Of a stretch of DNA of 39,805 nt, positions 3,747-36,237 are shown piece by piece (the first letter of the stretch is position 1; every line of letters begins with the position of its first letter). The position numbers were made by a program, and so were the translations under genes. Under the pieces are notes generated by a model. The model saw nothing but the letters and a program-made list of their open reading frames with translations. It was not told the origin of the DNA and made no database searches. The DNA is from a virus, in IMG/VR virus record IMGVR_UViG_3300045988_129469, positions 1-39,805 of that record. One strand, written 5' to 3'.

Positions 3747-4556
3747 TTACCTCCACGGGCTCAAGTAGCGCGGGGTGACCTCTAGGGTCAGGCCCGCGCC
3801 CAGTTGGAAACTATTCTTTGTGTGTGGCTGCAGCGTCTCCCCTACGAGCACGCCGCGCAGCGAAGACCACGTGCCAGAATCAACCACGCCATTGGCGTCG
3901 GTGACCTGGCCTTGCATGCCGCGCTCCAAATCAATCCACCGAGTGCCCGGGCCACTGCCCAAGCTGACACGCAGCCCGCTAGGCAAGGTGAAACTGGTTG
4001 AGCGCCCATCCCATTTCAGGCGAAGTTTCGGCGGCAAATCACCCGGAACCGTCACAGTGACGTTACCCGTGTATGTCCTAATACCCCCAGACCAGACGCC
4101 AGAAAAGTTCTCCCACTTAATCTCATCCTCCATAACGTGCAACCCCACGAAAGAAGACGGCAGCGGAGCAGCGTCCGCCAGCACAACCTCAATCTCCGAG
4201 GTATGCCCGTCGCGCCACTCCACCTTCAGCTTCCCCGGCTGGGTGTATGACCAGGCCGCACGCCACCGCCGGAAAGCCACCGACAAATCCTCAACATCAT
4301 CAGTTACGAGAACGTTCAGACTGCCGGAAATCGGTGGAACCTTAAACCCCGTGCGGCGCACACCGTAGCGCGTCACCGTCTCATGGGTCGTATGGTCCAC
4401 CTTCCCCTCACCACCGTCAAAGCCTTCCGCCAAGAGGAGGACGGACTGCTGCCCACGCTGGTGAGGGTCAGCAATCCGAAACTGGTCACCAGAGGGGGCG
4501 ACCACCGTAATAGTTATCGGGTCACGGTAAATGGACCGCGAGTTGAAGAACCCCAT
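3747..4556 (-). CDS. Distal tail protein (Dit-position, 269 aa)
   Basis: Start overlaps the TMP stop (TAATG). Canonical position immediately downstream of the tape measure. Confidence 0.7.
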   Translation of the reverse strand: MGFFNSRSIYRDPITITVVAPSGDQFRIADPHQRGQQSVLLLAEGFDGGEGKVDHTTHETVTRYGVRRTGFKVPPISGSLNVLVTDDVEDLSVAFRRWRAAWSYTQPGKLKVEWRDGHTSEIEVVLADAAPLPSSFVGLHVMEDEIKWENFSGVWSGGIRTYTGNVTVTVPGDLPPKLRLKWDGRSTSFTLPSGLRVSLGSGPGTRWIDLERGMQGQVTDANGVVDSGTWSSLRGVLVGETLQPHTKNSFQLGAGLTLEVTPRYLSPWR

Positions 4557-7500
4557 TACATTGCACCTCCCCTAGTCGTGCCAGCTACAGCCACGCTCGT
4601 ACGGCGCCGCAGCTTGCCAATTTCCTCGGTGTTAATAGTGACCTCACCTTCGACCTTGTCTACGCGCTTACGCAGCACTTCCTGGCCGTCAAGGTTGATA
4701 ACCACCGTCGTGCCAGCACCACCGTCACGCTGCTTCGGCATTTCCTTATACACAAGGTCATCGAAAGCGCGAGTCTGCTGCGGCGACAGAACACGCTCCG
4801 GCGCCACAACGTCCTTCGGAAGTAGACCCTTGCCGTAACCAAGACCGCCCCGGTCAAACACACCGGAACGCTTCGCCAGCTGCAGACCACGCCCCATTTG
4901 TCCGGCGTACCGGTCAGGGAATGCGGACACCTGTACACCCTGCGCCACAGCGCCCGGGTCCATGCCCTTCCAGTTCGGGAACTTACGCAGCATCACGTCA
5001 AAGAACATGCCCGCACTGTCGTACGGCGTCATCCTTTGCTTCACCGTGCCCCACGCGCCGTTATCACGCTGCTGGAAAAGACCCACAGAATCGTAGTCCG
5101 AACCAACAGCGTCATGCCGGAACTTCAAGGACTCCGGCACAGCGCGGTTCGCCCACATTTTGAGCGGGCTACCCGACTCCACCAGCGCCGTCGCCAGACC
5201 AATCTTCGCACCGTGCACGTCCAACTTGTGATCCTTGGCCGAGCGTGCAATCTCGTGCGCAAAGAAAGGCTCGCCCCACTGCGGTGCCTTTTTCTTCGGC
5301 TTCGGCGGTGCGAGCTGCGGGTCTTTAGCCATCTTCGCTTCCGGCATAGTGGCGACTGCATCGGACTCAATCGCCTGGGCGTTCTTCGCGGCCACATTGG
5401 TGCGCGGCTGCTCCTTGACCTGCTTAGTCGTGACGATACTGTCACCGTTTGGCAGCAGGTCTTTGCCCTTGGTGGTCAGCAGCTTCTTGATGGTGGAATC
5501 TTTCATTCCCAGCATGTCGAAGATGCCGTCTACCGCGAAGTCCAAAATGGACTGGTCTCCCAGCCCCTTCGCGGCGGTGGCCTTGGCCGCGTCCTCCGGG
5601 GACAACGCAACCGTGACCGTGTTCTCGCCAGTGCTACCCGCGGTGGTTTCATCGGCACTTACAGAGACGGGAACGCCGTCAATGGTCATGGTGCTGCCGT
5701 CCGGGATGGCATTCTGGTCGAGAATTTTGTTCATCTTCGGCGGCTTCGGCGGCTTGATGGTCTTATAGAAGAACTCGTTGAAATACGAGTCCCACGCGCC
5801 AGCGGCACGGCCACCAATCTGACCGTTACCACGACCGCCACCCATCTCAATGTTGGTGCCGTCCGGCAGAGTACCCGCGGTGTGACCGCCGGCAGGCCCG
5901 CCGTTCTTGAAGCCGATACGCAGGTCACCCTTCTTGCCACGCCCGTGGCGGAAGCCGTGCGAGGACAGCCACGCAGCTTCATTGCCAGTAGCGAACTTAC
6001 GAGGGAACGGGCTAATTCCAGCAGCAAACGCAGCTACAGCGGACATGGCGCCAGAGCAGTCGCCCCAGTTTGAGCCGCCCCACACGTAGGGAGCACCCTC
6101 TAGGGAACGCGACGCCTGGTGCCCGTTGGCAGGACGTCCTTCCACGAAATCACGCAGGCTTTTGACCGTGATTCCGCCGTTGGCGAAATACTGCGTTCTA
6201 GCCGGGGCAACCTGGGAAGACGTACCCGGCTTAACCGGCTCGCCCTTCTTGTCCACAACCGTCAGGCCGAAAATATCGGCAGTCTTGGCAAGAATCTGGG
6301 TAGACCGCTTCCGCTTCGACTTGGCTAGTGGGATGTAGGACTCGCCGCCGGTTTCCGGCTCCGCCCAGATTCGCCACTCGCCGCCCTTAGCAATCTGCGC
6401 CTTGTGCTGCTCTTTCGAGCCGCCGTTAGCGTAGCGCTCTAGCTTGTCGATGCCGCCGTCAATGTAAGCGCGGGTGATACCACCCTGCGCCATGTAGACA
6501 CCGCCGTCCATGAAGCCAAGCATGCCGCGAATCTTGTCCGGCATAACCGAACCAATCGCGTTACCAACCTGGCCAAACATCGACTTAATACCATTAATCA
6601 AGCCCGAAATGATGTTCTTACCAGCATTAACCAGCCACGTGCCAGCAGAAGCGAATACGCCTTGGACCTTGCCCGGAATCTGGCCCAGCACGCCCATCAT
6701 CTCGCCAATCTTGCCGCGAACCGTGCCAACCATCCGGCCAATAGCCTGACCAAACGACGCAGCCACCCGCTTCGCATTCTCGAAGATGGACTTAAAGAAG
6801 TTCATCGCCGAGTTGATAACGCCGTGGACGATATTGGAAATCGCCTGGCCCATCGAGCTGAAACGATTACGAATATTCGCGAAATTACCCGTCAGAACGT
6901 CCGCCAGCAGGCCGGCCGCGTTACGGAAGAAATTCCACGTTGGCTTAATGACTCCATTCCAGATACTGGAGATTACGCTGCCCATTACACGGAACGCGCC
7001 GCCAATCACGGCAGTGAACACCGAGGCAACGAACGTACCCACGGCCTGCGCAACCGACATGAACAGCGACAGAATAGGCTGAATAATCCCAGACCATACG
7101 GAAGAAATGACGCTGCCGACGAACTGGATAGCCGTCCAAATTCCGTTGAAAGCTGCGGACACAACAGAGCCCAGGAACTGGAAGCCCATCATCATGGCAT
7201 CGACAATCGGCGCAATCCAGGTTTGATAGAACTGGCCGAAGCCAGTAGTAAATTCGGCCCACTTTTCCTGCATGCTATTCCACGCGTTAATCGCAGTAGT
7301 TTGCAAAACGAAAAAGGCCGCTTTCAGGAACTCCACAACCGGAGCAATCCACGTTTGGTAGAACTGCCCGAACCCGGTCGTGAACTCCGACCACTTGGCC
7401 TTCATATAATCCCACGCGGCGACAGCAACATTCTTCAAATCCACGATGCGGTCGCGGAAGAACGTCAACGCCGTAAAGATTGGGGAATCTTCACTAATAC

Positions 7501-29883: not shown

Positions 29884-30061
29884 GGCGAGTTTTCCTTTCA
29901 TAGGCGGCGATTTGTCCGGTGACGAGGTGGGTGTGTGCGGCGGCGTCTTTAATTTGGCGCCGAATACTCTCCGGGATATGCGTGTAGCGGTAGATGAGCT
30001 TGAGCCGGGTTTCAATATCTTTGAGGTGGTTGATGGCTTCGGCGTGGGTGATTTGGTGCAT
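29861..30061 (-). CDS. Hypothetical protein (66 aa)
   Basis: ATG at 30061 with GGAG 7 nt upstream. The track start is a TTG at 30073. Confidence 0.55.
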   Translation of the reverse strand: MHQITHAEAINHLKDIETRLKLIYRYTHIPESIRRQIKDAAAHTHLVTGQIAAYERKTRHANHHAK

Positions 30062-30232
30062 GATTATCTCCAAGTCATGGTGAATGTGGACACGCGCGGC
30101 CTGTGGTGCCGGCCGCGGCTGAAGAGTGCTTTGAGGAGTTTCATGCGTGTTCTCTTCTGGTAGTGTTCATGGTGTCCTTTCCGGTTTAAGTAGGGATTTT
30201 GACCTCGCGGTGTGTGCTGAGCCGCGGGGTTC

Positions 30233-30248
30233 CTTTTGTTGATGGGGG
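30233..30248 (-). repeat. 16-mer CCCCCATCAACAAAAG (minus), copy 2
   Basis: Exact match to 21719..21734. Lies between the structured region and the next gene block. Confidence 0.9.
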
Positions 30249-30324
30249 GTGGGTGCAGGTGCGGGTCAGTGGCGGGCCGCCCGCGCCTTCACTTACGACG
30301 GCAGTTACACGTCACACCCACCCC

Positions 30325-30700
30325 GGTGGCCTGCCGGGGAATCGAACCCCGGAGTCTTTTGTAAGCACATTCCTTAGCCCCTGTAGTAGGTGTAAAAGAA
30401 TTGTGATTTGTCCATTCAGGCCTGGTATTTCTGTCAGCGCTGTTCGCTCCCTCCTCACCACTCCAGGGTGAGGGTTCCTGTACCTAAGTACTTGCCGGAG
30501 TCCTGGCACCCTGTCGGGCGGCCCAATGGGGCCTGATCTATGAACCACGCTCGTCCGGCCGGTATCTTCCAGCGCTCTTCACTATTGAGTTCTCTGTACT
30601 GCGTGGCCGTCCAGTCCCTCGTCTATCCCCTAGGGAGGGTCTGGCGGCCTGGTGCCCGCGGGGAGGCTTGCACTCCCCTGCCTGCTAAGTCGGGCTAAGT
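30325..30700 (-). ncRNA. Candidate structured RNA ending in a tmRNA/tRNA-like T-arm plus acceptor module
   Basis: No convincing ORF across 30171..30716. T-arm CCGGGG-TTCGATT-CCCCGG at 30334..30352. Acceptor-like pairing GGCCUG (30417..30422) with CAGGCC-A-CC (30325..30333). At least six further helices, listed in the findings. Confidence 0.3.
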
Positions 30701-30716
30701 TTCTCTGTTTGGGTGC

Positions 30717-30872
30717 TTAATGCCCTGCCCTTGCGATGGCAGCGTCGAGAGCGGCCTGCTCTGCTTCGGTAAAAAGCTCTTCGACGATGCTTGGTTTGAG
30801 GTGTTCCTTGAGTGCGGCTTTGAGGTAGCCGAGTATGTAAGCGTCGGTGTATACAGTGTCGAGAGTGTTCAT
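30717..30872 (-). CDS. Small ORF (51 aa)
   Basis: Codon-by-codon hand translation MNTLDTVYTDAYILGYLKAALKEHLKPSIVEELFTEAEQAALDAAIARAGH. Follows xis by 14 nt. Confidence 0.5.
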   Translation of the reverse strand: MNTLDTVYTDAYILGYLKAALKEHLKPSIVEELFTEAEQAALDAAIARAGH

Positions 30873-30886
30873 GGTGGGGTCTTTCG

Positions 30887-31072
30887 TTAGTAGATGCGGT
30901 AGGTGTGTTTTTCGAGGTGTTTCTCGATTTGTTCTCTGCGGTAGAGGACGTGGCGTTGGCTTGGGCGAATGCGGTCCCAGTTGTTGTTGCGGGCCCAGCG
31001 GCGCAGTGTGTCGGGGCTGCAGCGGAGAAGTTCGCAGGCTTCTTCCGTGTTGAGGTATGGGGAGTTGTTCAT
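30887..31072 (-). CDS. xis: Excisionase-type HTH DNA-binding protein (61 aa)
   Basis: YLNTEEACELLRCSPDTLRRWARNN is a typical MerR/excisionase-family HTH. ATG at 31072 with AAGGAA 7 nt upstream. Confidence 0.65.
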   Translation of the reverse strand: MNNSPYLNTEEACELLRCSPDTLRRWARNNNWDRIRPSQRHVLYRREQIEKHLEKHTYRIY

Positions 31073-31083
31073 AGGGGCATTCC

Positions 31084-31329
31084 TTATGCAGCGGTTTCTT
31101 CGACTTGGTCGAACCATGCCGCTATGTAGTTTTTGTCGCCTTGTAGTGCGGATACTCGTAGCGCGAGTTCTGCGGTTACCTTTGCCCCGGCGCGCAGCTT
31201 TGGCACGTCTGTGGTGCGAACGCCAATGAGTAGTGCGAGCTGTTCTTCGGTCTGTAGATTCCTTGAGCGCATGATTGCGTCTAGGGCTCCGGGGCGGAAG
31301 GTGAACCGAGGCGGTGCCATGACAGCCAT
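31084..31329 (-). CDS. Cro-like XRE-family HTH regulator (81 aa)
   Basis: First gene of the leftward early operon, divergent from the repressor. Has an HTH-like segment LQTEEQLALLIGVRTTDVPKLRAG. GGAGG lies 7 nt upstream. Confidence 0.7.
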   Translation of the reverse strand: MAVMAPPRFTFRPGALDAIMRSRNLQTEEQLALLIGVRTTDVPKLRAGAKVTAELALRVSALQGDKNYIAAWFDQVEETAA

Positions 31330-31382: not shown

Positions 31383-31506
31383 GTGACTAAAGATTGCCAC
31401 AGTTGACTATCGGCTGCAATACACCCTACATTTTTCACCCCCGGTGGACACCCTCGCCACATGTAACAAGCTGCACAAATGGCAGTTGACTACAGATTGC
31501 TATAAA
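31383..31506. promoter_or_regulatory. Divergent immunity-switch region: three 15-bp operator-like repeats and promoter elements
   Basis: gTGACTAaaGatTGC (31383), tTGACTAtcGgcTGC (31403), tTGACTAcaGatTGC (31486). TTGACT-18 nt-TACATT at 31403..31432. Extended -10 TGcTATAAA at 31498..31506, 9 nt before the repressor ATG. Confidence 0.6.
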
Positions 31507-31515
31507 GTGTTTCCC

Positions 31516-32016
31516 ATGAACGTTAATGACTGGCTAATCGACCTCAAGGGCGAGGACTCAATGCGCGCCGCCTCCAAAAAAAGTGGATATGCGCAAACCA
31601 CCCTCCAGCGACAGATCGACAAGGGAGTCCTATCACCTGAGATGGTCATTGCCTTATGTCGCGCTTATGACCGCTCCCCCGTCTCAGGCCTTATCGAAAC
31701 CGGCTACATCAACGACTACGAGCTACACGGCCCCGACGTGGAAATAGCCCTCCGTGAAGCCACTAATGAGCAGCTGCTAGACGAAATCATGCGCCGTTCC
31801 GACCCCCAGGCGCGCTACCTATTCGGCAATGAGGGAGATGGGGACACCATCGGTCTAGCCCCACATCTCACCCCCGTGTCCGATGCATCTGCTTCACTGC
31901 ATGGTGATGATGATGGCCTGGTCGAGGAGTGGGATGATTCCGTACCGCACGCGGCGGATAGTAGCCCCGACGAGCAGGCCGAACGTGAAAAGCGAGGTGA
32001 GGATTTGATTGATTAA
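31516..32016 (+). CDS. Immunity repressor, HTH N-terminus with acidic C-terminal tail (166 aa)
   Basis: ATG at 31516. HTH-like SKKSGYAQTTLQRQIDKGVLS. Divergent from cro and followed by ImmA. Confidence 0.7.
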   Translation: MNVNDWLIDLKGEDSMRAASKKSGYAQTTLQRQIDKGVLSPEMVIALCRAYDRSPVSGLIETGYINDYELHGPDVEIALREATNEQLLDEIMRRSDPQARYLFGNEGDGDTIGLAPHLTPVSDASASLHGDDDGLVEEWDDSVPHAADSSPDEQAEREKRGEDLID

Positions 32017-32386
32017 CACCGATGCCCTCATTGATGTGGCGCAGCGACGCGGGTATCGGGTGAGGTGGCATCGTGGCGGGCCGAAAGCAGCATGGCTCCC
32101 CCACCGGAACACCATCACCCTGCGCGTAGGAATGGACGACACAACCACCCTGTGTTCTCTCGCCCACGAGCTAGGCCACGCTCACTACGGCGACCCACCT
32201 GGCCACCATGGCGCCCATGAGCTACGCGCCGACAGGTTCGCCGCCCGCTTATTGATTAACCCCGTCGACTACGCCACTGCCGAAGCAATCTACGGACCAC
32301 ACCCGGCCACCCTGGCGCACGAGCTAGGCGTCACGGTCAAAGTCCTAAAAACTTGGCAATCTCTCTACGAAAGGCAAGCAGCATGA
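32009..32386 (+). CDS. ImmA/IrrE-family zinc metallopeptidase (125 aa)
   Basis: HEXXH motif (AHELGHAHYGD). TTG start overlapping the repressor stop, with GAGGTGAGGA upstream. Confidence 0.85.
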   Translation: MINTDALIDVAQRRGYRVRWHRGGPKAAWLPHRNTITLRVGMDDTTTLCSLAHELGHAHYGDPPGHHGAHELRADRFAARLLINPVDYATAEAIYGPHPATLAHELGVTVKVLKTWQSLYERQAA

Positions 32387-34688: not shown

Positions 34689-35972
34689 CTACTTTGTGTC
34701 CATAGCCATCTCTGCCCCTTGCCCCTGTTTCTGTTTCTGGCTCCGCTTCGCGTCTAGGTCTCCCACCCCATCGGGGACTGTCAGTGTGGCATTCACCGCG
34801 TCGAGGACAGCTGCCTTACGGTCATCCGTGGCGCGCATATACACCTCAGTGATGGTGCGCAGGTCCCGCTGGCCAAGGAACTCACCAATCGCGGGAATGG
34901 GCATACCAGCCTCAGCTAGCGTCGTAATAACCCAGTTACGGCCATAGTGCGGGGTAATGGTCACACCCTTATGCCCGGCGCGCGTCTTCGCCCGGTCGAG
35001 AATAGACCTATAAGAAGTATCGGTAACGATCTTTCCAGCGCCAGTAGTAAACAGCATCGCGCCGCGCGCGGCGGCGGTGCGGTGTTTCAGATGCCAGCGC
35101 ACGTCATCATGGAAAGCGGGGAAAATGGGAATAGTGCGGTAGCCGGCGTCGGTTTTGACGGTGTCTTTGCGTACCATGCCCACGCCTGGTTCTTGGGAGC
35201 GGTAGCAGTTGCCGCGGATGTGGATGAGGATTGTCTCTCCCTGGTCCTCGATGTCACCGCGGCGCAGGCCCAGTGCTTCACCAATCCGCAGCCCATGGAA
35301 GAAGGTGAGGATGGCGATGAGTTTGTGGCTGCCGTCAACGCGTGGCTTGGTGTGGTCGAGTTCGTTGACGATGTCTTGGAGTATTTGGCGGGTGGGGAGT
35401 TCTTTCTTTTTGAGTTTGGGGCGTTTGGTGGCTTCTTTGAGGGTGACGGGGTTGGCGGGAATCATGTCGCGTTCTACTGCTGCAGCTAGTGCGGTGCGCA
35501 GTCGCTTGTAGGTGTTGAAGCAGGCGGTGGGGGCGTGGTCGATGGTGATGGCGTCCCACCAGGCGGCGATGTCGCGCTTGGTGAGTTGGGTGAGTGGTAT
35601 GTCGCGAAGGCGGGCTGCTTTGCCGCTTGCCTGGGTGATGCGTAGGCGGATGTCTTTGGCGTAGTTCTGGGCGGTGGAGGGCTCGAGTGCGTCTGGGCCG
35701 TGGGAGCGTAGTTGCATCCATTCGTCCATCCATTGGCCTACGGTGCGGGCCTTGTCCTCGCGTGACTGGGTGCGGGTGGCCGGTGGGGTCCATTCGTCGA
35801 ATTCGATGAGCCGTTGCTCGGCGCGTAGCCATGCGGCGGCGTCGTCGGGTGATTGGTAGGTGCGTGGGGCTTTGTGGCGTTTGCCGTCGGGGCCTTTGTA
35901 GTAGGCGCGATAACGGCCTGATTTAAGGGGTTCGATGGAGCCGAATTGGCGGCGTCGTGGGGCTGGGGACAT
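34689..35972 (-). CDS. int: Tyrosine integrase (427 aa)
   Basis: Arm-binding-type N-terminus (SGRYRAYYKGPDGKRH). Catalytic motifs HGLRIGEALGL, HYGRN (HxxR) and LGQRDLRTITEVYMRA (Tyr). Confidence 0.95.
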   Translation of the reverse strand: MSPAPRRRQFGSIEPLKSGRYRAYYKGPDGKRHKAPRTYQSPDDAAAWLRAEQRLIEFDEWTPPATRTQSREDKARTVGQWMDEWMQLRSHGPDALEPSTAQNYAKDIRLRITQASGKAARLRDIPLTQLTKRDIAAWWDAITIDHAPTACFNTYKRLRTALAAAVERDMIPANPVTLKEATKRPKLKKKELPTRQILQDIVNELDHTKPRVDGSHKLIAILTFFHGLRIGEALGLRRGDIEDQGETILIHIRGNCYRSQEPGVGMVRKDTVKTDAGYRTIPIFPAFHDDVRWHLKHRTAAARGAMLFTTGAGKIVTDTSYRSILDRAKTRAGHKGVTITPHYGRNWVITTLAEAGMPIPAIGEFLGQRDLRTITEVYMRATDDRKAAVLDAVNATLTVPDGVGDLDAKRSQKQKQGQGAEMAMDTK

Positions 35973-36168: not shown

Positions 36169-36191
36169 TCGGTGGAGCTGCCGGGAATTGA
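36169..36191 (-). other. Putative attP core resembling the 3' end of ssrA (tmRNA)
   Basis: Minus strand TCAATTCCCGGCAGCTCCACCG. This is a T-loop/T-stem remnant plus the conserved tmRNA acceptor 3' strand CAGCUCC-A-CC. Confidence 0.5.
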
Positions 36192-36237
36192 CACAATAAC
36201 CACACTGCCACGCCAAATAAGAAACCATAAAGCTCAC

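Follow-up and report, generated by a model that had tools for sequence, protein, structure and literature searches.

Large, intricately folded RNAs are rare in bacteria and phages, and almost every class that has been studied has shown unusual biochemistry. Two families, GOLLD and ROOL, are encoded by phages and prophages, often beside tRNA islands, and form covariation-supported multi-junction folds of unknown function (PMC12286853; PMC5737381). GOLLD sometimes carries tRNAs embedded in a linker, is expressed during lysis and has been reported to bind ribosomes in pull-downs (PMC12286853). Here we analyse an element of the same general character in IMG/VR virus record IMGVR_UViG_3300045988_129469, whose whole length of 39,805 nucleotides (nt) is called the window below. 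The stretch in question, positions 30171–30716 on the minus strand, is the gene for a modular structured non-coding RNA, the helices of which are kept by compensatory substitutions, and which appears to represent a phage RNA class that is new. In order, its modules are a first tRNA-like structure (TLS#1), a variable hairpin domain, a 144-nt core, a second tRNA-like structure (TLS#2), an accessory 3′ domain and a terminator-like hairpin.

By context the element is probably nearest in kind to GOLLD and ROOL, being likewise phage- or prophage-encoded, often close to tRNAs and folded into a multi-helix junction. An earlier note on this DNA had named that kind among several identities, and of those listed it is the closest by analogy; the element nevertheless belongs to neither family, with no homology to them in sequence or structure (no Rfam match at E ≤ 10). 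At gathering thresholds Rfam 15 gave no match in the window, and a scan of 30000–30900 (901 nt) at E ≤ 10 returned only noise and a 17-nt T-arm match to mascRNA. The core was unmatched by any Rfam 15 family in the window, in three phage loci (E ≤ 1) and in six small member loci (E ≤ 5), where the scans found tRNAs only. The GOLLD and ROOL covariance models had no match in the window region or in the phage or member loci at those thresholds, and no match to Y-RNA-like RNAs appeared in the Rfam scans. The element is also much smaller than either family: its core is 144 nt and the whole ∼0.25–0.5 kb, whereas ROOL has ∼580 nt and GOLLD > 800 nt. On each side, at a fixed distance, it has an obligatory tRNA-like minihelix, and it has so far been found only in Corynebacterium phages and prophages and in metagenomic or viral contigs.

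Other described systems share single features with it. In MALAT1–mascRNA, an RNase P cut at a tRNA-like structure makes the 3′ end of the upstream RNA. Like MALAT1–mascRNA and MEN-beta, the element has a tRNA-like structure immediately 3′ of a non-coding RNA, and mascRNA–menRNA was the only Rfam model to touch, below threshold, the T-arm of the window and the minihelix of a distant member (L206). The MALAT1 system is eukaryotic and has one module, whereas the element is phage-borne, has modules on both sides that can be swapped with real tRNAs, and its cleavage is only predicted. With the tRNA-like domain of transfer-messenger RNA (tmRNA) the element shares an acceptor, a T-arm, a D-loop-like segment without a D stem, an ACC(A) end and a long arm in place of the anticodon stem, but it has no G3:U70, tag open reading frame (ORF) or pseudoknot ring, and its acceptor strands are only ∼95 nt apart. 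The tRNA cluster of phage T4 includes small stable RNAs of unknown function that are co-transcribed and co-processed with tRNAs, and has a homing endonuclease gene inside it; these RNAs belong to another phage group, are small and are not known to be bracketed by degenerate minihelices. HK022 put RNA and the EAR element, both of them processive antitermination RNAs, resemble ours in being structured and in preceding terminators within an early or long operon, but are much smaller and are not known to have tRNA-like modules.

Our literature searches found no description of a structured RNA in Corynebacterium phages matching the element. A catalogue of 10,006 viral csRNA candidates (PMC10690425) may include it unnamed. 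As far as can be told, this is an undescribed family of phage structured RNAs, and the family is real.

A conserved core with compensatory changes in its helices

On the minus strand, 30171–30716 is the stretch between a 51-aa ORF (30717–30872) and the next ATG at 30170. The earlier note had described it as an ORF-free, densely structured element in which the listed ORFs were shadows, and this description holds: there is no credible ORF, and the sole ORFs inside are a 78-aa ORF with a GTG start and plus-strand shadows. The element proper occupies 30203–30695 and shares its minus-strand sense with all neighbouring genes. The minimum free energy z-score against shuffled sequence is −2.79 for the minus strand and −0.69 for the plus strand.

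Homologues were sought first by BLASTN against deposited phages, and then by pattern scans, built from conserved blocks, of viral, one-genome-per-species and metagenome collections. BLASTN located short conserved blocks in the Corynebacterium phages IME1320_01, StAB and Stiles, where they fall in an unannotated gap of 450–590 bp at the same early-operon site; none of these three deposited genomes carries an RNA annotation over the region. The degenerate core pattern gave mostly chance matches in the genome and metagenome scans, and true members were picked out by secondary motifs and the covariance model. True matches in the one-genome-per-species collection came only from Corynebacterium (five, in C. 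yonathiae, C. hiratae, C. kefirresidentii, C. aurimucosum and a Corynebacterium sp.), a sixth locus of that collection, L104, has the motif, and further members came from the viral collection and from metagenome contigs, the latter being those among the matches listed. After removal of chance matches at least 44 distinct members remained, and every identifiable one is a Corynebacterium phage or prophage. The early-operon position was identical in all phages whose gene order was examined. Two variant cores, in IME1320_01 and locus L011, were excluded from the statistics that follow.

The core (30427–30606, minus strand, in the window) is a multi-helix junction closed by a long-range helix, X. 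Its conserved single-stranded blocks are GAGAACUSAAnAGUGRA, GAWGAUAC, GAGCRUGGUUCWUAGAU, AGGMACC (AGGAACC in the window, between hairpins H7 and H8), GGGAGGGARC and, in the 3′ tail, RUAAAU. A covariance model of 144 positions and 22 pairs (R1) scored 123.1 bits on the window core (E = 1e-27), and 44 members scored between 44 and 160 bits. Compensatory support in these homologues was far above that in shuffled alignments. Standard pairs filled 89.5% of cells, compared with 65.7% after shuffling, and there were 204 double-sided cells against 60.6 in shuffles, with changes on both sides in 20 of the 22 pairs; since the members come mostly from one genus and many are close kin, such cell counts overstate the number of independent events, and the number of distinct versions of a helix is the safer measure. 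The covariation score was 0.598, falling to 0.18 in shuffles and to 0.03–0.10 when partners were slid by one to three columns. An alignment fitted to a model is biased towards the given structure; RNAalifold and explicit extractions concur with it, however. RNAalifold, which is independent of the supplied structure, recovered helices Z, H7 and H8, with compensatory changes in 13 of 14 pairs.

Helix X pairs AGCGCUG (30570–30576) with CAGCGCU (30436–30442). In one subfamily the model misaligned part of it, and its versions were taken by explicit extraction, which yielded at least nine that are distinct and complementary: AGCGCCG/CGGCGCU, AGCGCUG/CAGCGCU, GUCACCC/GGGUGAC, GUCCU/AGGAC, CUCCCC/GGGGAG, GAGCCCCG/UGGGGCUC, GUCCCC/GGGGAC, UCCCCAU/AUGGGGA and GUCGCC/GGCGAC. 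An alternative hairpin, Y (CUGG-AAGAUA-CCGG, 30559–30572, minus strand), has the invariant GAWGAUAC in its loop and compensatory versions of its own, CCAG/CUGG in L078 and CAUG/CAUG in L191. The 5′ strand of Y shares nucleotides with the last 3 bp of helix X, so that the end of X and Y are mutually exclusive, and the two alternatives may constitute a conformational switch. In L116 and L198, extra nucleotides allow X and Y to form simultaneously.

Helix Z (GCCGGA, 30554–30559, with UCCGGC, 30494–30499) encloses the conserved internal region; 99.6% of its cells are paired and all six pairs show double-sided changes. Hairpin H7 is GUAC-UUAG-GUAC in the window (30480–30491), and in most members a 3-bp stem with a GNRA tetraloop (GCAA, GUGA or GACA); every cell is paired and its three pairs all show double-sided changes. 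Hairpin H8 (CCUCACC/GGUGAGG, 30453–30473), which is followed by the invariant GGAGGGA (30446–30452), has 91.9% of cells paired and double-sided changes in five of six pairs. Two helices that the earlier note had paired by hand, 30494–99/30554–59 and 30449–59/30467–74, are thus core helices Z and H8, both with covariation support. Its small hairpin 30520–24/30529–33 is real and confined to a 27-nt insertion within helix Z that occurs in the window's subgroup only. The long-range pairing 30505–10/30651–56, in contrast, does not stand: it lies in the same insertion, competes with the covarying acceptor of TLS#1, and its partner varies without compensation. A mutual-information scan of the core alignment for additional pseudoknots returned the known helices as its top pairs, the remainder being subfamily structure. 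Together with the multi-helix junction, the invariant unpaired purine-rich blocks of the core suggest that it adopts a tertiary fold and has a particular partner or activity.

With the flanking modules described below, compensatory double substitutions extend to at least eight helices, which argues for selection on RNA pairing rather than for a protein gene or a DNA site. There are stops in all three sense frames of the core in nearly all members, and one antisense frame is stop-free in most. Among near-identical members, though, the core is 144, 145, 146, 147, 148, 149 or 151 nt long; such single-nucleotide differences break every frame on either strand, including the stop-free antisense one, and the core is therefore not protein-coding. 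The conserved small-protein frame that the earlier note had envisaged as another explanation falls with them. We take minus as the sense strand because co-oriented genuine tRNAs, T-loops, GNRA tetraloops and gene orientation all agree; the count of G-U against A-C, 31 to 41, was given no weight because helix X is misaligned in one subfamily.

tRNA-like modules and accessory domains around the core

TLS#2 is a 98-nt module (30325–30422, minus strand) that starts 4 nt past the core. Its acceptor pairs GGCCUG (30417–30422) with CAGGCC (30328–30333), its T-arm is CCGGGG-UUCGAUU-CCCCGG (30334–30352), and it ends in a discriminator A followed by CC (30325–30327). Between acceptor and T-arm there is a D-loop-like AAUGG and then a long variable arm of ∼64 nt, and no D stem. 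The T-arm, the CAGGCC-A-CC that follows it (30325–30333) and the distant GGCCUG had all been picked out in the earlier note, and the acceptor-like stem proves to covary, with 13 fully complementary versions across the family (for example GGCCUG/CAGGCC, GCCCAG/CUGGGC and GCGCAG/CUGCGC). G is first in all of these acceptors, and discriminator A followed by C is found in nearly all. An alternative hairpin between CCCCGG and a downstream CCGGGG (30321–30339), which the note had set against the T-arm, is present in the sequence; covariation, however, favours the T-arm and the stem of the 3′ domain as separate helices.

We defined a module as an acceptor stem of 6 bp or more that stacks on a 5–6-bp stem with a 7-nt loop, starting no more than 14 nt past the end of the core. 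Such a module is present in 41 of the 43 members with enough downstream sequence, typically at a spacing of 3–8 nt, compared with 6% of shuffled sequences. Judged by sequence and structure, the shape directly past the core is that of a minimal RNase P substrate (acceptor stacked on T-arm, G+1 and a single-stranded 3′ RCC). What occupies the slot differs from member to member. It is a genuine tRNA-Leu(CAA/CAG), as called by ARAGORN, in nine (L104, L131, L149, L181, L204, L239, L278, L283 and L284), tRNA-Lys(UUU) in L256 and an odd tRNA in L137; about 15 members have a bare 42–44-nt minihelix of acceptor and T-arm, and the window's group has the long-arm version of 91–101 nt, that of L149 being called a 90-nt tRNA by ARAGORN. 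Some members have a tRNA-Leu and then a long-arm module, and in L104, L149 and L284 a tRNA-Leu lies within the element. The constant unit of the family is therefore TLS–core–tRNA/TLS, ∼250 nt of a whole element of ∼0.25–0.5 kb.

A second tRNA-like minihelix, at the 5′ end, and the separately conserved 144-nt core at the centre go beyond what the earlier note had seen. TLS#1 (46 nt, 30650–30695, minus strand) has a 5-bp acceptor-like stem (GCCCG, 30691–30695, with CGGGC, 30654–30658), a 12-nt linker, a 6-bp T-like stem (GGGGAG, 30673–30678, with CUCCCC, 30660–30665), a 7-nt loop of T-loop type (UGCAAGC, 30666–30672) and, at its 3′ end, a discriminator A plus CCA (30650–30653). The T-like stem is the note's hand-paired 30660–65/30673–78. 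TLS#1 is present in 37 of the 44 members, with four acceptor and five T-stem versions, each complementary; in the corresponding alignment (A6) 90.8% of cells are paired against 81.9% in shuffles, and double-sided changes number 19 against 3.7.

At the TLS#1 position phage StAB (L002, MK937613) has an unannotated 82-nt tRNA-Sec-like element (2623–2704 of the locus, minus strand). It scores 35.9 bits on the Rfam tRNA-Sec model (cut-off 47), and ARAGORN makes no call; its anticodon loop is UUUCAAA (anticodon UCA), and ∼10 nt of it are shared with the 3′ end of the antirepressor coding sequence annotated there. It could be an opal-suppressor-like or a degenerate tRNA.

Between TLS#1 and the core lies the variable hairpin domain, H3 (30605–30649), with an outer stem GGCCGCCAG/CUGG-A-CGGCC, an inner stem CCCUC/GAGGG and a conserved CUAGGGGAUAG in its apical loop; the hand-paired 30605–14/30641–49 and 30616–20/30635–39 belong to it and have covariation support. 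Two unrelated versions of the domain exist across the family. In L273, L119, L232, L198 and L112 it is missing, leaving a gap of ∼15 nt between TLS#1 and core, and H3 is therefore dispensable. L119 (4050–4170, minus strand), L273, L232 and L198 also have three CGUCAC repeats, flanked by what is left of the common 5′ minihelix and by a different one (type 3); these repeats, upstream of the RNA, may have been inserted as an operator or promoter block.

On the other side, a 79-nt hairpin domain (30246–30324, minus strand) starts directly past the ACC of TLS#2. Its closing stem, GGGGUGGGUGUG (30313–30324) with UGCACCCACCCC (30246–30257), covaries, examples of its versions being GGGGUUGU/GCAACCCC, GGGGCGGGG/CCCCGCCCC, GGGGUGCGAU/GUCGCACCCC and GGGCGGGGCGUG/UGCGCCCCGCCC. 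We regard this domain as an accessory module because it is missing in L283, L131, L116 and the carriers of an HNH insertion. The element ends with a GC-rich hairpin, CCCCGCGG...CCGCGAGG (30203–30229), 33 nt ahead of the next start codon. In the window this hairpin has no U-tract; the equivalent in L004 is a canonical intrinsic terminator with a U-tract and, by sequence reading, so are those of L222, L111, L281 and L284.

Seven members (L073, L012, L054, L119, L264, L279 and L122) have an HNH endonuclease gene directly past the minihelix TLS. In L073 the gene (4178–4732, plus strand; flanks 3822–5130) matches phrog_1492 at E = 1e-73 and is preceded by a 42-nt minihelix; after it come a second, partnerless copy of the 3′ segment of the core, a tRNA-Leu(CAA), a long-arm TLS and the 3′ domain. 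This arrangement looks like the pattern expected of endonuclease homing with co-conversion of flanks, and it suggests that co-infecting phages share the RNA gene as a conserved target. Well-conserved sites are what homing endonucleases prefer, and their insertion here therefore suggests that the RNA is under constraint.

Proposed excision from the early transcript and other readings

The enzymes that process the 5′ and 3′ ends of tRNAs need an acceptor stem, a T-arm, G+1 and a discriminator A plus C, and a minihelix is a minimal RNase P substrate. We lean, with moderate confidence, towards the view that the tRNA-like modules would act as processing signals that release a stable RNA from the early transcript. 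Three features point this way: in many members the modules are cut down to exactly the minimal RNase P minihelix, tRNAs, the processing of which is certain, can take their place and vice versa, and their spacing from the core is fixed and very short. The 3′ end of the core RNA would be made by RNase P cutting 3–8 nt past the core, at G+1 of TLS#2 or of a tRNA standing there; tRNA 3′-end processing after TLS#1 would make its 5′ end, and RNase P acting at TLS#1 would detach the upstream mRNA. The predicted product is a stable RNA of ∼230 nt, comprising variable domain and core, or of ∼160 nt in members without the variable domain. The early polycistronic transcript would thereby be split into separately stable parts, and the released core would act in trans during lytic growth. 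Such a mechanism parallels MALAT1–mascRNA and tRNA-punctuated transcripts, and is compatible with the processing element that had been one of the identities first proposed for this DNA. A promoter scan of the window and of L005 turned up nothing convincing directly upstream of TLS#1, and for the window this fits co-transcription with the operon.

Several points weigh against excision. The parts assigned to RNase P and to 3′-end processing are read from the shape of the modules, which could, instead of being cut sites, have a function within an RNA that stays whole. The nucleotide at −1, before G+1, is mostly A, whereas bacterial RNase P prefers U there. A divergent gene starts upstream of the RNA in L054-type members and in L119, L273, L232 and L198, ∼15 nt before the minihelix in the L054 type and ∼120 nt before the functional minihelix in L119, so that in such members the RNA may have its own promoter and not be excised from an operon. 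Finally, X and Y exclude one another and yet both covary, which hints at a switch that the processing model leaves unexplained.

If the RNA stays intact, two acceptor/T-arm mimics with ACC ends, held on a rigid core, might serve as a decoy, sponge or scaffold, the candidate partners being anti-phage toxins that cleave or modify the acceptor end of tRNAs, SmpB, the CCA-adding enzyme, EF-Tu and the ribosome. We consider this unlikely, although much in the element would suit it. Both flanks are always mimics of the top half of a tRNA in which G+1, discriminator A and the following C are conserved; loops of T-loop type (U1, A5) are kept even where tRNA function is impossible; the TLS#2 of the window's group has an 'acceptor-AAYGG' segment without a D stem, like the tRNA-like domain of tmRNA; and the invariant GGAGGGA block can, in our reading, be seen as Shine-Dalgarno-like. 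GOLLD, too, has tRNAs in its linker and was reported ribosome-bound in pull-downs (PMC12286853). Genuine Leu and Lys tRNAs, presumably processed, replace TLS#2, however, for which a processing role is the simplest explanation; the stem sequences of the modules drift freely, so that no specific identity set is conserved; and no gene for a partner protein co-occurs consistently. A bolder form, to which we likewise give little credence, would make the element the founding member of a new RNA class, with a possibly catalytic or self-assembling core that permanently bears two acceptor-arm mimics, the whole molecule acting on the host tRNA machinery. It could then, for instance, soak up anti-phage toxins directed at the tRNA 3′ end or dock on ribosomes or SmpB, rather than simply being excised by RNase P, and the mutually exclusive, covarying X and Y would be a functional conformational switch.

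It is improbable, in our estimate, that the element is instead a cis-acting leader of the delayed-early genes, gating Xis-like and replication genes by processive antitermination or attenuation in the manner of HK022 put RNA or the EAR element, with the nascent fold altering RNA polymerase or governing the terminator hairpin at its 3′ end. Its position would be right, in the early operon, 3′ of cro-like/HTH genes and 5′ of replication genes, and a GC-rich hairpin always separates it from the next gene, with the U-tract terminators noted above in L004 and, on reading, in others. The mutually exclusive, covarying X and Y are switch-like, and at least 10 members have a conserved Arg-rich micro-ORF shortly after the RNA. 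The antitermination RNAs known to us are, on the other hand, much smaller and have no tRNA-like parts. Several members lack the 3′ domain with its context, and the core can be separated from the downstream genes by an HNH gene; we conclude that the core is not tied to a particular terminator. tRNAs placed between a 'sensor' and a 'terminator' would also be hard to reconcile with a leader.

A tmRNA-like RNA, working in or against trans-translation, was among the earlier suggestions and is very improbable. It would account for the layout of TLS#2 (acceptor, AAUGG without a D stem, long arm, T-arm and ACC end), and the phage has an attP-like core, GTCAATTCCCGGCAGCTCCACC (36171–36192, minus strand), which is a copy of the tmRNA 3′ end. 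Nevertheless, ARAGORN found no tRNA or tmRNA gene anywhere in the window, and Rfam was negative for tmRNA both at gathering thresholds and at E ≤ 10. Position 3:70 is C-G in the window, and the other members with an extended arm have C-G or G-C there; the arm of TLS#2, read in three frames in several members, has no shared ORF or stop (QFFYTYYRG* in the window, none in L004); and in relatives an ordinary tRNA or a 42-nt minihelix replaces TLS#2, the arm being absent in many members. A functional tRNA is rejected as well, with no full cloverleaf recognized in the window by ARAGORN or Rfam, and the judgement that the module is neither a functional tRNA nor an Ala-accepting tmRNA was thus correct.

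Two further known classes were considered and rejected. RNase P RNA has no Rfam match at E ≤ 10; a string resembling its M1 RNA, CAGGGUGCCAGG, is confined to the 27-nt subgroup insertion, and a CR-V-like (ACAGAA-like) string, GACAGAAAU, has no P4 partner and varies (RUAAA). A group I intron likewise has no Rfam match, and the flanking ORFs are complete, independent genes.

That the element has no RNA function at all, and is a decayed tRNA array, an old att/ssrA module, a small-protein gene or a site that works as DNA (an origin or an operator array, for instance), is hardly credible: tRNA-like fragments and real tRNAs are indeed present, the 3′ end of TLS#2 resembles the attP core and an antisense frame of the core is open in most members, but compensatory double substitutions in at least eight helices are not expected of decay, a DNA site or a coding frame, single-nucleotide length differences break all frames, and the conserved core is not tRNA-like at all. 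The relic of an ssrA-targeting att module imagined in the earlier note is likewise not supported, the 13 covarying acceptor versions implying selection on RNA pairing; of the kinship to an attP core on which it drew, the attP-like sequence itself exists, one mismatch from the string given there, whereas the likeness is generic, consisting of a T-arm and an acceptor end.

Neighbouring genes, range of the family and significance

The element belongs to the early lytic genes of a temperate Corynebacterium phage, with the immunity region on one side of it and the replication genes on the other. The immunity region (31444–32386, plus strand) has a 190-aa ORF at the repressor position, for which no family match was found, and an ImmA-type peptidase. 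The divergent early lytic operon on the minus strand includes an 81-aa ORF and an HTH_17 protein (30887–31117), and downstream of the element come small ORFs, a DUF2800/PD-(D/E)XK exonuclease and a primase-helicase. An integrase gene (34689–35972, minus strand) adjoins the attP-like site, which suggests that the phage integrates into the host ssrA.

Two small reading frames follow the element directly. The first, a 9-codon ORF (MNTTRREHA*, 30141–30170, minus strand), has the start ATGAACACTACC, which in most other members opens an HTH_17/excisionase-like gene 3′ of the RNA; the window seems to have lost that gene by deletion and to retain its start alone. The second is an Arg-rich micro-ORF of 26 aa, MKLLKALFSRGRHHRPRVSTFTMTWR (30064–30144, minus strand), shorter than the usual ORF length cut-off. 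Peptides of 22–28 aa with the pattern M..L.K.LF.RGRH.KPR...W.R are encoded by the first or second ORF past the RNA in at least 10 members, and may be candidate RNA-binding peptides.

Two groups of observations bear on the range of the family. A distant, lower-GC member (L206, 635–888, plus strand) on metagenome contig Ga0172378_10273391 has a core scoring 43.8 bits and, 3 nt past it, a tRNA-like minihelix, which is the source of the sub-threshold mascRNA match mentioned above; no 5′ minihelix was recognized in it. This member hints that the family reaches beyond the sampled Corynebacterium phages. The variant cores of IME1320_01 (L001, 2128–2581) and L011 (4702–5070) have an extra insertion of ∼30 nt and another segment in place of GGAGGGAACGA; they match the model partially, at 25–27 bits, and keep the 5′ minihelix, helix Z, hairpin H7 and the 3′ minihelix.

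The family also matters for annotation, and the element recurs in prophages of several Corynebacterium species. GOLLD and ROOL have recently been shown to form RNA-only cages, and the present element is, in spirit, a smaller and more tractable relative. It has cultivable carriers in StAB and Stiles, which are phages of Corynebacterium xerosis, and in IME1320_01. The family also comes with natural experiments of its own, in the swaps between tRNA and TLS, the presence or absence of two accessory domains and the insertions of homing endonucleases, and it makes testable the question of why the ornate RNAs of phages travel with tRNAs.

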